NCBI GenBank assembly: GCA_043806015.1
Contig: JAZDHH010000008.1
Location: forward strand, 37,695 to 101,694
Origin: Nanobdellota archaeon
GTDB lineage: Archaea > Nanobdellota > Nanobdellia > Woesearchaeales > JAHIVG01
Direction of reading: 5' to 3'
DNA length: 64,000 bases
Positions 11,924-59,985 of the stretch are shown here, piece by piece. Position 1 is the first letter of the stretch; every line of letters starts with the position of its first letter. A program made the position numbers and the translations under genes. The notes beneath the pieces are model-generated. The model was not told the DNA's origin. It was given only the letters and a program-made list of their open reading frames with translations, and ran no database searches.

Positions 11924-14395
11924 ATGGATACCATTGATGATCTTAACCCTATTGATCAAGGTCTTGAAGAGGCCCGAGGTCACTTCAGACGGCGTATGAG
12001 ATTTTCAGCTGCTGCCTCATTGTTCGCTTTTCTCCTTGGAACCGTGCCTCCCGCATTTGCGACCGCTCAACAGGATCCGCAGAAAAAGGAGCCGGTCGGC
12101 ACTACGACAATCATAAAAGGTGTCCCTCAAACATACGAAATCGGAACCGTCGAGGGGTCGATTCAAGCCGATGAGGTAGACGGGCTGAAGCCACTTTTTT
12201 ATGAATGGGTCACCCTTCCGGATAGTACCAAAGAGATGGCAATAGTGAGAGATCGGTATGGCCTCTTCAGGAGCGGCGACTTTAAGGCTCGCGGCACCTG
12301 GCTGGACAGCGCCGGTTTGCCTGATTCAGTCCGCGAGGGCGATGCGGAACAGGTTACCCTTCCCTACGCTCCTCGCGGGACGCCGAGGATTGTCTTTCGG
12401 AATCCGGCGATGACCGAAGCCATCCAGGACGGTTATCTCTCTGCGGAGGAAACGCGGGCGATTGGTCCTGGCCTCTACGCGGGTTATGAATCCTTCGATG
12501 CGAACCCGGATGCAGGTATCTTGCTGCCAGAATCGATTAGGCTGCTCATTCACATCACCGGAGAAGAATCTGTTTTGGAGCGGAAAGTGATTGCACGCGC
12601 TCGAGAGATTGCTGATACGCATAATACCCCGGAACATCCGTACCAGCCAGAAAAGCTGGAAAAACTTGGCGATTTGCTGCACGAATACGACCTGCTCCTG
12701 ACGGAACGCGACAGCATGAAGGTCGAAGTCGATCTAATCAAATTCAATGGCAAGGGGATGACCGCCGAGGAAGCGGAGAGACACATCGGCGACCTGGAAA
12801 AGCGCTTGGCCTCCTTGAGGGACGGGCTAAGTGAGAAAACGACGCTTTTATTGGATGAGTCTAGGCGCGTGAGTGAATATCTCACCACCTCAGGCAAAGG
12901 AAATGTTGATGTAACAAGTGGAACAATCGCTGGTGCGGACCTCTCGGTGAGACGCTTCATCGGGGGGAAGCCTCGATCGGTCACGCTCAGAGACAGCACG
13001 CAGCTCCATCTCTTGCCAGCACAACTCGCTACTTTGGGAGTGGAAGGAAGTTATGAGCCGGACAAATGGGCGGGTCTCGGGACCCTGGAGATCCCCTTTG
13101 GCAGTCCCTTGCTCGTAGTGAGCGGAGGTATCAGCGGTGTCTCTTCAGCATCTTCCTTCGCTCGCTCGCATGACGAGGAACAGGGATGGGTTTCGCAAAC
13201 GATTGATGAACAGGGATATCAAGATCAAAACATCTTGCGGCTCTTGGCAGGATTAGGGCTGCGATGGGGTCGCGTCGCAGGTGATGTGAAATATGTCCGC
13301 GTCGAGAGAAGTGATGAGATCCAGGCTATCACCGACATCTTAACGACGACCCCTCTCGGCTCGGAAAAACGTCGGTATCAAGTCATGCATGCTGAAGACA
13401 CGAATGCAAATATCGGCACAGGTTCATTGACCTTACAGGCGCTCCAGCACTTGTATTTGACCGGACGCCTCCGCCTCCAATCCATTGACGGAAGCGGTCT
13501 TCGCGAGCAAACGTCCATCGCAACCGGGCATGATTCCATCCCTAATGTGAACAAAGCCGATATGCGGCTAAAAGACGGCTCCAGGACAGGGTGGGGGGCA
13601 GAGTTGGGTTATCAGCCAGAGCATGCCCGCCTCTTGTTGGCCTATTTTTCGAGCAGGGGAGATGTTGAGCGTAATGAGAGATGGAATATCAATCCCCTTC
13701 AGGGGACTTTCACCACGAACCTTTGGATGCCGGAATATGCGCATGAATCAGTCGTCATGTCAGGTTCGTGTGACCTTGGCAATCTCCGCCTCCTGGCGCA
13801 CGGCTCCTATGACGATTCCGGGATTGACACCGAGCTGAGGATCGATGGCGAGCTCACTCGCCTCGCGCATGAAGGGACGATCCGACGTGCCGGCAATCTC
13901 GGCCTTTATTGGAGGATGACAGAAGATGTCGCATCCCTGCTCCAGGGGATTGAGCTGCGGAGGATAATGGACGATGACGAGCTCATCCAGGCGTTCACCG
14001 GCCGCCGCCCCCATGAGGATGTCTACCGTCCAGGCATGGGAACCGTCAGGGCGAGAGGGCTCTGGAGAACCGATCGGGCCTCAGAGCAAGATGCTATCGC
14101 GGCAACCAATCGATCGGACAAGATCGATGTCTATGGCGTAACAGTTGAGGGTCTCGTCCCGCTGGGACGGATCTCTTTGGGGACAGGTGCGACGTATGAA
14201 AAGGAAAAGAGGAAAACCGCAGGAGAGCCTCTTCATCCGCACAACGATACAGGATATCGCTTTCATATTGCTCCTGTCGGAGTCATCCCCGTCGGCCATC
14301 TGGATCTATTGTTGAAGGTCGATCTTCAATGGAACCCAGCATTCGATGGAAAACATAGCGGTGGTCGGATAAGTGTCGGTTACGGAGGTCGGTAA
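11924..14395 (+). CDS. Secreted or membrane-anchored hypothetical protein with a beta-strand-rich C-terminal half
   Basis: 823 aa. It has an N-terminal anchor/signal (FSAAASLFAFLLGTVPPAFATAQQ). A GAGGGGG SD-like element and an AT-rich box lie upstream. Its stop is 1 nt before the next gene's ATG. Confidence 0.7.
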   Translation: MDTIDDLNPIDQGLEEARGHFRRRMRFSAAASLFAFLLGTVPPAFATAQQDPQKKEPVGTTTIIKGVPQTYEIGTVEGSIQADEVDGLKPLFYEWVTLPDSTKEMAIVRDRYGLFRSGDFKARGTWLDSAGLPDSVREGDAEQVTLPYAPRGTPRIVFRNPAMTEAIQDGYLSAEETRAIGPGLYAGYESFDANPDAGILLPESIRLLIHITGEESVLERKVIARAREIADTHNTPEHPYQPEKLEKLGDLLHEYDLLLTERDSMKVEVDLIKFNGKGMTAEEAERHIGDLEKRLASLRDGLSEKTTLLLDESRRVSEYLTTSGKGNVDVTSGTIAGADLSVRRFIGGKPRSVTLRDSTQLHLLPAQLATLGVEGSYEPDKWAGLGTLEIPFGSPLLVVSGGISGVSSASSFARSHDEEQGWVSQTIDEQGYQDQNILRLLAGLGLRWGRVAGDVKYVRVERSDEIQAITDILTTTPLGSEKRRYQVMHAEDTNANIGTGSLTLQALQHLYLTGRLRLQSIDGSGLREQTSIATGHDSIPNVNKADMRLKDGSRTGWGAELGYQPEHARLLLAYFSSRGDVERNERWNINPLQGTFTTNLWMPEYAHESVVMSGSCDLGNLRLLAHGSYDDSGIDTELRIDGELTRLAHEGTIRRAGNLGLYWRMTEDVASLLQGIELRRIMDDDELIQAFTGRRPHEDVYRPGMGTVRARGLWRTDRASEQDAIAATNRSDKIDVYGVTVEGLVPLGRISLGTGATYEKEKRKTAGEPLHPHNDTGYRFHIAPVGVIPVGHLDLLLKVDLQWNPAFDGKHSGGRISVGYGGR

Positions 14396-24178: not shown

Positions 24179-24479
24179 TGGGGGTGCTGGGACTTTCAAG
24201 CGACACTCGTCTCCTGGGAAGGCAAGGCCCGTTTCTTTTTTTCCAGTCACGAGCCGTTATTCAGGGGCTTGAGCGCGTAGCGCGAAACCCCCATCGCAGT
24301 CTTTTTAATCCGTCAAGGACCTTTCGACCGCTCAGGTATTTTTCCCAGGTGCACGAAACCCAAAGGTTTCGGCAGCTGTTTGAACCCAGATTGGCTGGTG
24401 TCTGGCCGGAATCGTCATCGCCCGAAGGCTCCGCGCTCCTCTGGAGCCAGCCGTACTAGCCAGCTTATACGACACCCCC
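24179..24479 (-). tRNA. tRNA-Trp(CCA) with two introns (41 nt at 37/38; 186 nt in the T-loop at 59/60)
   Basis: Acceptor GGGGGTG/CACCCCC. D arm GTAT-AAGCTGGCTA-GTAC. Anticodon arm GCTGG-CTCCAGA-CCAGC. T arm CTGGG-TTCAAAT-CCCAG. Exons are 24479-24441, 24399-24379 and 24192-24179, giving 74 nt mature. TTTAAATA lies ~30 nt upstream (24508-24515) and a T5 run follows the 3' end. Confidence 0.85.
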
Positions 24480-53355: not shown

Positions 53356-53560
53356 CGGGCCGGACGAGACTTTCGTCGCCTTTCACGGCTTTTCGTAAAA
53401 GGCGCTTCGAACTCGCGACTCCCGCATTAAAAGTGCGGTGCTCTGCTGCCCGAGATCTCCGGATGAGATTTTCAAAGCCGTTTTTTCATCCGATAAGGCT
53501 GAATAAAGGCTTATTGAGTGTATCTCAAGCGGTAATCGCTCCAGGCTGAGCTACCGGCCC
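53356..53560 (-). tRNA. tRNA-Lys(UUU) with two non-canonical introns (~95 nt in the D-loop; 36 nt in the T-loop at 59/60)
   Basis: Acceptor GGGCCGG/CCGGCCC. D arm GCTC-AGCCTGG[intron]CA-GAGC. Anticodon arm CCGCA-CTTTTAA-TGCGG. T arm GCGAG-TTCGAA[intron]T-CTCGT. Exons are 53560-53541, 53445-53406 and 53369-53356, giving 74 nt mature. The exact D-loop junction is uncertain. Confidence 0.75.
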
Positions 53561-53571
53561 GTTTGTGCATT

Positions 53572-53594
53572 TTAATCATCCTTTGGATGATTAA
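53572..53594. repeat. Perfect 10-bp inverted repeat TTAATCATCC-TTT-GGATGATTAA between tRNA-Asp and tRNA-Lys
   Basis: Read directly. It may be a processing or termination hairpin or a pair of AT-rich promoter boxes. Confidence 0.8.
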
Positions 53595-53599
53595 ATAAA

Positions 53600-53688
53600 C
53601 GCCCTGGCCGGGATTTTCGTATTAGCTGTGTCGAACCCGGGTCAGAGCCTCGACAGGGCTCTATGATAGGCCACTACACTACCAGGGC
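53600..53688 (-). tRNA. tRNA-Asp(GUC) with a 16-nt intron in the T-loop (59/60)
   Basis: Acceptor GCCCTGG/CCAGGGC. Anticodon arm GAGCC-CTGTCGA-GGCTC. Variable loop TGAC. T arm CCGGG-TTCGAC[53629-53614]T-CCCGG. The mature tRNA is 73 nt. TTATAA lies ~24 nt upstream. Confidence 0.85.
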
Positions 53689-53932
53689 ATTTAAATGGTT
53701 TGATAACCCTTATAACCCCTCCTTCGGCGGCAATAGCCATAGCTAGGCGTTGCTTTGGCGTCAGAAGGATTATGTGGGCATCGGACGGGGGTTTATTTCG
53801 GTATATATAAACCTTGCTGTTTTTATAGAGAACAACCTATCTATATAAGACTCCGCTTTTCATCCCAAGCGCGCTTTCAAACAAGGATTTCCTTGATTCT
53901 GTTCTTTTTATGTTTATATGTAGTGGAGAATA

Positions 53933-56260: not shown

Positions 56261-56385
56261 TCCCCGCCCCCGGAGTCGAACCAGGAACCTTTCGGTGCCG
56301 GCTGGCTATTCTTCATCCTCGGGGCGTTGCGCCCAAGTCAAAAAGCTTCTACAGCCGAACGCTCTAACCATTGAGCTAGGCGGGG
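56261..56385 (-). tRNA. tRNA-Tyr(GUA) with a 52-nt canonical (37/38) intron
   Basis: Acceptor CCCCGCC/GGCGGGG, with the C1-G72 pair typical of archaeal tRNA-Tyr. D arm GCTC-AATGGTTA-GAGC. Anticodon arm TTCGG-CTGTAG[56348-56297]A-CCGAA. T arm CCTGG-TTCGACT-CCGGG. The mature tRNA is 73 nt. Confidence 0.85.
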
Positions 56386-59731: not shown

Positions 59732-59985
59732 TGGGGCCACCGTGACTTTCAAGCTGTTCTCTCAAGGGGGCTTGAGCGCGTAGCGCGAAACCCCCAAAGC
59801 GGTCATGTCTTTCCGTAAAGGAATGAAGGACCGCGCTGGTATTTTTCCCAGGTTTTTTTTGTCCGTGAGGACAAAAAAAGCTGTTTGAACACGGGTCACT
59901 AGCTGTCCGTCTCATCGATTCGGCGGGAACCGCCGCTCTTGACGTCCCCGAGCTAGTAGGATAGACCAGGCTACCCTATGGCCCC
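59732..59985 (-). tRNA. tRNA-Pro (anticodon CGG or GGG; register ambiguous) with two introns (~41-43 nt in the anticodon loop; 138 nt in the T-loop at 59/60)
   Basis: Acceptor GGGGCCA/TGGCCCC. D arm GGGT-AGCCTGGTCTA-TCCT (Pro-like). Anticodon stem (A)CTAGC/GCTAG(T). Variable loop TGAC. T arm CCGTG-TTCAAA[59883-59746]T-CACGG. TTTTAAAT lies ~29 nt upstream and a T6 run follows the 3' end. Confidence 0.7.

Follow-up and report, generated by a model that had tools for sequence, protein, structure and literature searches.

Non-canonical bulge-helix-bulge (BHB) introns of archaeal tRNA genes have been described, with position 59/60 as a listed site, and introns are also known to move from one tRNA gene to another (PMC4090602, which reviews Sugahara 2008 and Fujishima 2010); in Thermoproteales, similar introns are shared between different tRNAs (PMC4090602). 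A census of Asgard tRNAs reported repeated intron gains, but neither a general route by which introns arrive nor copying from one tRNA gene to another (bioRxiv 10.64898/2026.10.13.758758). In DPANN archaea, a Woesearchaeote included, single-subunit forms of the splicing endonuclease EndA have been reported together with a high number of disrupted tRNA genes and with predicted tRNA sets that are incomplete, which is ascribed to an "L3" insert (Kaneta 2018, PMC5829648). The route by which archaeal tRNA introns arrive is still open, and the Thermoproteales work inferred transposition without a mechanism. Here, we analyze the tRNA genes in a 64-kb stretch of DNA (contig JAZDHH010000008.1, positions 37,695 to 101,694; hereafter, the window) from a Nanobdellota archaeon of the order Woesearchaeales, a group for which our literature search found no detailed account of the intron landscape.

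All five tRNA genes of the window are interrupted, and four of them share an intron site in the T-loop, between positions 59 and 60. We consider it likely that these are BHB introns spliced by EndA, that 59/60 is an old, portable and preferred site, and that the long introns found there form a younger layer, built by a structured module, rather than one end of a gradual decay series.

The tRNA genes of the window and their splice motifs

We scanned the window for GTTCRA preceded by a T-stem strand, with the partner strand no more than 450 nucleotides (nt) downstream, and further demanded an acceptor strand after the partner strand, complementary to a 7-mer upstream. This acceptor-stem and T-arm scan gave exactly five tRNA genes with 7/7 acceptor pairing, all on the minus strand: tRNA-Asp(GUC) (89 nt, 53600..53688), tRNA-Lys(UUU) (205 nt, 53356..53560), tRNA-Trp(CCA) (301 nt, 24179..24479), tRNA-Pro(GGG) (254 nt, 59732..59985) and tRNA-Tyr(GUA) (125 nt, 56261..56385). 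Standard tools badly under-call these genes, which affects inferences on the completeness and codon usage of DPANN genomes: ARAGORN at default settings found zero tRNAs in the unspliced window (0/5), and by Rfam tRNA-Tyr alone reached the gathering score (1/5; 52 bits, the T arm being intact and the anticodon loop holding a single large insert), next to a sub-threshold match on the 5' part of tRNA-Asp. After in-silico removal of the introns, ARAGORN called 5/5 as full-length tRNAs, with anticodons GUC, UUU, CCA, GGG and GUA. The acceptor pairing is accompanied by the T arm in tRNA-Asp, for which the spliced product of 73 nt is called as tRNA-Asp, and by a cloverleaf parse in tRNA-Lys, tRNA-Trp and tRNA-Pro. 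Each of the five is the sole gene for its anticodon in a genome rated 100% complete.

Introns were placed from the sequence, the cloverleaf parse and explicit BHB bookkeeping. There are eight introns in the five genes: four at 59/60, three at 37/38 and one in a D-loop. The original prediction, made from the letters of the window, had all five genes interrupted by eight introns in total, four of the genes sharing the 59/60 site (16, 36, 186 and 138 nt in Asp, Lys, Trp and Pro) and tRNA-Tyr carrying a canonical 37/38 intron only; the scan and the bookkeeping confirm this count and layout, and the predicted coordinates of the Asp intron are exact. This intron (16 nt, ACAGCUAAUACGAAAA, 53614..53629, minus strand, as are all those below) has the central helix UUCG/CGAA with 4/4 pairs, bulges ACA and AAU, and the 5-bp T stem as outer helix; the 59/60 intron of Lys(UUU) (36 nt, 53370..53405) has the same central helix, also 4/4, and an outer helix of 5 bp, and both are without an inner helix. 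The 59/60 introns of Trp (186 nt, 24193..24378) and Pro(GGG) (138 nt, 59746..59883) both carry the structured module described below (74 bits with covariance model R1 in Trp, 97 bits in Pro). In both, the central helix UUCA/UGAA is 4/4 and the outer helix has 5 bp, and the palindrome AGCU at both intron ends forms an inner helix, of 3 bp in Trp and 4 bp (AGCU/AGCU) in Pro.

In the BHB rule that we applied to an intron between positions X and X+1, exon bases X-5..X-2 pair with intron bases n-5..n-2, the bulges are (X-1, X, i1) and (i(n-1), i(n), X+1), and the outer helix runs from X-6/X+2. For X = 59 the exon strand is U54-U55-C56-R57; therefore, the intron must read YGAA, then two bulged bases, then U60. 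All four T-loop introns of the window follow the sixth nucleotide of the T-loop and end in CGAA-AA, CGAA-AG, UGAA-AG or UGAA-AG before U60, and in 4/4 of them YGAA pairs fully (4/4) with U54-R57, with bulges of 3 nt and the 5-bp T stem as the outer helix. Thus, the original prediction was right that the introns end in (C/U)GAA-A(A/G) before a U, after six T-loop nucleotides, and that this end pairs with UUC(G/A), but the end does not serve as a terminal similarity between introns: because the BHB splice motif forces it, it is not a sign of common descent. The same geometry was found in a pool of 48 introns at 59/60, taken from this genome and 40 relatives, all of the same order. The central helix is 4/4 in 38/48 and 3/4 in 10/48, position 60 is U in 46/48, and intron base n-5 is U in 23/26 of the hosts with A57 and C in 14/22 of the hosts with G57.

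We infer from this geometry that the window introns are archaeal BHB introns, which would be cut from the pre-tRNA by EndA, with the exons rejoined by RNA ligase. At 59/60, U54-U55-C56-R57 would pair with the intron YGAA (n-5 to n-2) as a 4-bp central helix, flanked by the bulges A58-N59-i1 and i(n-1)-i(n)-U60, and the T stem would act as the outer helix; cuts after N59 and after the last intron base would restore a normal T-loop of 7 nt.

The other four introns of the window follow less regular motifs or are placed with less certainty. The 37/38 introns of Trp (41 nt, 24400..24440), Pro(GGG) (41 nt, 59905..59945) and Tyr (52 nt, 56297..56348) form 2-3 of the 4 central pairs in strict register, i.e., they have relaxed motifs, and a strict BHB was rejected for them on this ground; their boundaries rest on the cloverleaf and on intron-less orthologues. 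For Trp, the strict register gives 2/4 central pairs, and the cloverleaf has an anticodon stem of 5/5 and the loop CUCCAGA. For Pro(GGG), the cloverleaf parse comes with a central helix of 3/4 and an outer helix of 7 bp, and the intron is homologous to introns of the sister genera; the Tyr intron is placed by the Rfam insert, the cloverleaf parse, BHB bookkeeping and ARAGORN on the spliced form. The D-loop intron of Lys(UUU) (95 nt, 53446..53540) lies directly 3' of G18-G19, and its removal leaves the D-loop AGCCUGGCA, matching intron-less orthologues. Its central helix, GCCU/GGGC, was derived by hand, with the 95-nt register unscored by script, and its boundary is less certain, with an alternative at 53448-53538; the 3' end GGGCA(A/G) is kept in orthologues.

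The genome has one EndA gene, an open reading frame (ORF) of 178 aa on contig C17 with PF01974 (104 bits) and PF02778. A second subunit or paralogue was not found: there is a single PF01974 match, and phmmer against all ORFs returned nothing else below E = 2. The hallmarks of a broad-specificity EndA (a beta subunit or a three-unit fusion, as in (alpha-beta)2 with CSL and epsilon2 with ASL) are not present. Homologues at 59-73% identity come from metagenome-assembled genomes, mostly labelled Woesearchaeota or Nanoarchaeota, which places the organism among DPANN archaea of the Woesearchaeota type, and the nearest solved relatives are the alpha subunits of N. equitans and A. pernix and the homotetramer of M. 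jannaschii. Against the M. jannaschii enzyme (1A79), which has strict specificity, the catalytic domain aligns free of gaps, with no insertion between the catalytic Tyr and His, where the N. equitans insert is absent. The L3 insert (PMC5829648) was not recognised in this alignment. A single-subunit EndA lacking a recognisable specificity insert would apparently handle relaxed motifs, which is a testable challenge to the rules that tie enzyme type to substrate range.

Position 59/60 in the genome and in its relatives

The genome (1.56 Mb in 24 contigs; G000 in the coordinates below) was surveyed with Rfam matches, ARAGORN and our own scans by profile hidden Markov model (HMM) plus stem-pair score; the census is home-made, not one by tRNAscan-SE or SPLITSX. 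Automatic splicing by BHB enumeration followed by ARAGORN was dropped as too noisy, with many false anticodons, and replaced by the profile-HMM and stem-pair score. In the census there are 44 tRNA genes and, in addition, one odd locus; introns, 37 in total, interrupt 30 of the genes, and the other 14 are uninterrupted. The possibility raised with the original prediction, that a genome-wide census would find most tRNAs uninterrupted, does not hold. The introns lie at 37/38 (22), at 59/60 (9), in the D-loop after G18-G19 (3), at 53/54 (2) and in the variable region (1). Position 59/60 is the main non-canonical site of the genome, with 9/15 non-canonical introns, in Lys-CUU (148 nt), Glu-UUC (145 nt), Ala-UGC (22 nt), Trp (186 nt), Lys-UUU (36 nt), Asp (16 nt), Pro-GGG (138 nt), Arg-CCU (147 nt) and Ser-CGA (46 nt). 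Since 30/44 genes are interrupted genome-wide, the interruption of 5/5 genes in the window is unremarkable (p = 0.13). The share of window genes with a 59/60 intron, 4/5 versus 9/44 genome-wide, is enriched (hypergeometric p = 0.004), a value that is indicative only, because the window was picked after the fact.

We compared orthologues in the 40 relatives, among which G001 and G002 represent sister genera of the same family. In Asp, a 59/60 intron is present in 17/28 orthologues, of 16-52 nt plus one of 113 nt, with sequences unrelated beyond the forced end; both sister genera have one of 19 nt, and their exons are identical to those of the window gene. In Lys-UUU, 7/19 orthologues have it (15-38 nt; 21 and 29 nt in the sister genera), and the D-loop intron after GCCUGG is widespread in the relatives, with a conserved GGGCAAU end. 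The Pro-GGG intron, 138 nt here, has 19 and 22 nt in the sister genera and 103 nt in one other genome, and is lacking in three; that of Arg-CCU has 147 nt here, 12 nt in G001 and 35 nt in G002. A 59/60 intron in each of these four tRNAs (Asp, Lys-UUU, Pro-GGG and Arg-CCU) is thus common to the three genera of the family. Other tRNAs are patchier. The T-loop intron of Trp is confined to three genomes, this one (186 nt), G001 (17 nt) and a third (16 nt), and about 21 orthologues are without it; in Glu-UUC, the 59/60 intron has 145 nt here and 46 nt in G002. The 148-nt intron of Lys-CUU has no counterpart in G001 or G002, both of which have a 37/38 intron that is absent from Lys-CUU of this genome. 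Conversely, 59/60 introns are missing here from Gln-UUG (124 nt in G001, 20 nt in G002; this genome has a 53/54 intron instead), from Arg-UCG (124 nt in G001; the module is at 37/38 here) and from Glu-CUC (115 nt in G001). The pooled lengths at 59/60 are bimodal, either 12-52 or 94-186 nt with none between; the pooled sample is enriched for long introns by the module search, and the gap holds in untargeted orthologue sets too. Repeated gain at a preferred site, as originally proposed, is supported in substance by the 9/15 non-canonical introns at 59/60, by the recurrence of the site in orthologues across the order, and by Lys-CUU, with 148 nt here and none in both sister genera.

Several observations concern the rest of the census. 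Ile(GAU), Gln(CUG) and a third CAU tRNA were not found in the genome by any method used; they may be more heavily disrupted, split or located in assembly gaps. A relaxed search for the missing tRNAs gave noise only, and the G001 orthologue, used as a BLAST query, then recovered Gln-UUG. The genome does have a tRNA with anticodon UAU (C21:1055-1160). The two 53/54 introns, between G53 and U54 of the T arm, are in tRNA-Gln(UUG) (32 nt, C4:124303-124428) and tRNA-Pro(UGG) (17 nt, C12:52149-52240); in Gln-UUG, both sister genera have a 59/60 intron where this genome has the 53/54 one. Outside the window, a second gene resembling tRNA-Val(UAC) (C21:13312-13583) is split after position 26 by about 175 nt, which hold a complete uninterrupted tRNA-Val(UAC) (13354-13426) flanked by the inverted repeat AAAGAAATGTGATGT / ATCACATTTCTT; a further intron, of 18 nt, interrupts the anticodon loop of the outer gene. 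The locus resembles either one tRNA lying inside an intron of another, or a relic gene.

As regards the window genes themselves, tRNA-Asp and tRNA-Lys(UUU) are followed by rpoH and rpoB (window 53356-53700, downstream to about 52300), and the Asp-Lys adjacency recurs in many relatives of the order, with the matches a few dozen to about 150 nt apart. The mature tRNA-Pro(GGG) has the anticodon loop UCGGGGA (window 59905-59950), with C at position 33, where U is almost universal. Misplaced splice sites do not account for it, because the orthologue L143, which has no anticodon-loop intron, has the same loop. The tRNA-Ser(GCU) of this genome likewise parses with C33 (CCGCUAA). The Trp 37/38 intron is nearly universal in the order (loci L113-L140), and its conserved GGAGCGAUGAG ... 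CGAUGA motifs are similar to the box C/D guide RNA of tRNA-Trp introns in other archaea; the window copy (24400-24440) keeps part of them.

The structured module of the long introns

All five long 59/60 introns of the genome (138-186 nt; Lys-CUU, Glu-UUC, Trp, Pro-GGG and Arg-CCU) carry a structured module of roughly 100 nt. From 5' to 3', it consists of (C)AGCU, a T-run/A-run hairpin around CCUCNCGG, the stretch ACCUGGGAAA, a variable hairpin, and the hairpin GGGGGUUUCGGCG...CGCCUCAAGCCCCC; compensatory changes were found in 10/25 of its predicted pairs. Searches with nhmmer and the covariance model R1 were used to collect further copies. R1 gave 11 copies in this genome (46-117 bits), 4 weaker matches in the sister genus G001 (28-51 bits) and few elsewhere, and the long introns have no Rfam match even at E <= 10. 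One copy lies in a 37/38 intron, that of Arg-UCG (130 nt); within one genome, then, the module fills tRNAs of different identity and position, five hosts at 59/60 plus Arg-UCG at 37/38. In the relatives, all nine T-loop introns of 94-124 nt carry a member of the module superfamily, as does every inspected intron of at least 94 nt. The 59/60 hosts in G001 are Glu-CUC, Arg-UCG and Gln-UUG, with no overlap with the tRNAs loaded at this site here.

A tree of 17 module copies from four genomes groups them by genome, with support of 100/99 for the G001 clade and 95/97 for that of G029. The number of genome-label changes on the tree is the minimum possible, and 0/200 shuffles cluster as well as the observed labels. 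Within this genome, the copies of Pro, Trp and the one downstream of Val form a clade (95/97).

Copies of the module are also found outside introns (C15:23386-23621, C6:97879-98180, C3:32570-32690 and C17:34751-34856), next to tRNAs Cys, His, Val(GAC) and Leu(CAA). The copy at tRNA-Cys precedes the intact gene and follows a stump that comprises 13 nt of the tRNA 5' end; that at tRNA-His is downstream, reversed, and between two copies of the 13-nt tRNA 3' end; that at tRNA-Val(GAC) starts 3 nt after the gene, and another lies downstream of tRNA-Leu(CAA). The layout of stump, module and gene also occurs in the relatives G001 and G037. We examined the CAGCU...AGCU repeat at the module ends as a possible target-site duplication and rejected it: since AGCU is a palindrome, the repeats are the two strands of the inner BHB helix.

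Two further repeat families were noticed. Directly downstream of the genes for Ser(GGA), Ser(UGA), Gly(UCC) and Ser(CGA), all outside the window, there are one to three tandem units of about 94 nt (G000 C3:13116-13304, C3:17799-18129, C19:66014-66111 and C20:39379-39471). Each unit ends with a copy of the last ~14 nt of its tRNA (the 3' strands of the T stem and of the acceptor stem), and both Ser genes on C3 also have 12-nt stumps of the tRNA 5' end upstream; the units may be integration scars or a processing signal. A second shared family of 59/60 introns, UAUUGGCGC ... CAGUGAGARAG (42-46 nt), is represented by locus L162 in G037 and by G000 C20:39249-39378, i.e., in different tRNAs of two different families, with a central helix of 3/4.

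Origin of the introns and relation to described systems

An intron ending in YGAA-AR could serve any tRNA at 59/60 with no co-adaptation, because the exon half of the motif (UUCRA and the T stem) is the same in every tRNA. At 37/38, in contrast, the exon half would include two anticodon bases and differ between tRNAs. Such portability would presumably be the cause of the preference for 59/60, and the D-loop hot spot after G18-G19 would fit the same rule, with a helix of the conserved GCCU and intron GGGC. An additional candidate factor is the idea from the literature that T-arm introns disrupt the sites at which integrating elements usually attach; duplicates of tRNA 3' ends adjoin several tRNA genes of the genome and show that such integration events happen. 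The older layer would consist of short 59/60 introns, which in Asp, Lys-UUU, Pro-GGG and Arg-CCU would date back at least to the origin of the family, at a site that has probably long been used in the order. The short intron of Trp, too, would already have existed in the ancestor of the family. The module would have spread later and separately within each genome, presumably by a route at the DNA level, for the most part entering or forming 59/60 introns, in one case here entering a 37/38 intron, and also landing beside tRNA genes. It may have loaded or replaced existing introns (Pro, Trp, Arg-CCU and Glu-UUC) or come as a complete new intron (Lys-CUU). Because the long module layer would be second and younger, the size range is better read as the gain of a block than as gradual decay.

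A more far-reaching version is possible, and we put it forward tentatively: 59/60 could be the homing site of an undescribed mobile intron element of Woesearchaeota-type archaea, i.e., a structured RNA module of ~100 nt with its own BHB half (5' (C)AGCU, 3' AGCU-YGAA-AR), which would use T-loop complementarity to enter any tRNA gene, spread in genome-specific bursts and leave stumps, as duplicated tRNA ends, where insertion fails. If true, sister genera with an empty, short or loaded site would be the first tractable system for intron gain in archaeal tRNAs.

Four other explanations have to be weighed against the two-layer reading. That the large structured intron was ancestral at 59/60 and the introns of 16 to 46 nt are its deletion remnants, which the original prediction had offered as a size series, is quite improbable. 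The Asp intron does start with ACAGCU, the 5' end of the module, with no pairing partner, and the 24-nt 37/38 intron of Arg-UCG in G001 has both ends (CAGC... and ...UGAAGAG) of the 130-nt module-bearing intron found here. However, decay predicts intermediates, loaded states held in common and leftover similarity, and none of these was seen: zero of the 48 pooled introns have 53-93 nt; the short introns of the sister genera match the module in nothing beyond the forced YGAA-AR; short 59/60 introns occur in many families with no detected module; and module copies cluster by genome. Moreover, the hosts of the module do not overlap between G000 and G001, which would need an ancestor with at least nine loaded tRNAs followed by complementary clean losses. 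The size series is therefore left unsupported. Inheritance with loss, in which each 59/60 intron was inserted once in the ancestor of the order, the patchiness came from losses and there was no gain at a preferred site, is unlikely, if somewhat less so. It agrees with the site being common to orthologues in many families and, for four tRNAs, to all three genera of this family, and with exons that are near-identical while the introns have diverged beyond recognition. Lys-CUU, with its 148-nt intron confined to this genome and a 37/38 intron confined to the sister genera, argues against it, as do the Trp T-loop intron, which is found in only 3 of about 24 orthologues, the near-identical module introns in five different tRNAs of one genome, and the Arg-UCG module, which is at different sites in two genera (37/38 here, 59/60 in G001).

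The YGAA at the 3' end of the introns could be a target-site duplication of the T-loop, left by DNA insertion, instead of a requirement of RNA pairing. In hosts with the T-loop UUCGAA, the intron CGAA both matches C56-A59 exactly and complements U54-G57, because UUCGAA is palindromic and a duplicate of C56-A59 would pair there in any case; but hosts with A57 (UUCAAA) have UGAA, the complement, in 23/26, and not the expected CAAA, which refutes duplication for these hosts and makes it very improbable overall. It is hardly credible that the interrupted genes are pseudogenes or assembly artefacts, although standard finders miss them: the genome, rated as complete, has no other gene for Asp, Lys-UUU, Trp, Tyr or Pro-GGG, independent assemblies have identical exons around introns that differ, and a perfect cloverleaf is restored in every case.

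It should be noted that several points weigh against the two-layer reading as well. Gene conversion, and not recent spread, could have made the module copies cluster by genome. At the level of the order, the pattern may reflect an old site with many losses as well as repeated gains. The 16-nt Asp intron, which begins with ACAGCU (unpaired) like the module, fits a decayed copy in that one gene; CAGCU within the first ten bases is expected by chance in about 0.6% of introns, and AGCU-type starts recur in relatives, since AGCU builds the inner helix. The lone EndA of 178 aa has no insertion relative to the M. jannaschii enzyme between the catalytic Tyr and His, yet the 37/38 introns here and some 59/60 introns of relatives have 2-3/4 central pairs. 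The home-made census misses at least Ile-GAU, Gln-CUG and the third CAU tRNA, and the splicing itself is deduced from sequence. With these reservations, a portable 59/60 site, loaded secondarily by the module, remains the explanation that we prefer.

The kind of intron and the 59/60 site are already known, whereas the dominance of 59/60 across an order, the two discrete length classes and a structured module spreading in genome-specific bursts seem to be undescribed. The introns analyzed here resemble the multiple and non-canonical introns of Thermoproteales and Nanoarchaeota (Sugahara 2008; PMC4090602) in the BHB at the junction, in the presence of up to several introns per gene, in the listed site 59/60, and in that gene finders miss the genes. 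They differ in their host, a DPANN archaeon of the Woesearchaeota type with a single-subunit EndA, in that 59/60 is by far the main non-canonical site (9/15) and is used across the order, and in the bimodal lengths of up to 186 nt. The enzyme is like the alpha4-type EndA of DPANN archaea (Kaneta 2018, PMC5829648) in being a single protein of roughly 180 aa with an N-terminal and a catalytic domain, in a genome with many disrupted tRNA genes and a tRNA set that standard prediction leaves incomplete; it differs in that the L3 insert, which that study links to broad specificity, is not recognised here, the alignment to M. jannaschii being gap-free between the catalytic Tyr and His.

Compared to the Asgard tRNA introns (bioRxiv 10.64898/2026.10.13.758758), heavy interruption, introns missed by annotators and gains at BHB-capable sites are common to both, whereas the copying of one module between tRNA genes is evident only here. 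In this respect, the lineage is close to the transposed intron families of the Thermoproteales type: near-identical introns are present in different tRNAs and positions (here, five at 59/60 and one at 37/38), and therefore point to movement between genes. The moving unit, however, is a module of roughly 100 nt with three hairpins in a genome where most other introns have 12-53 nt, save the 95-nt one in the D-loop, and it is found also outside introns, by tRNA genes and beside short duplicated tRNA ends, in genome-specific clusters. Thus, the lineage provides a clean comparative set, with one portable site used across the order, two intron states (short and module-loaded), and sister genera that have a given tRNA in the empty, the short or the loaded state.

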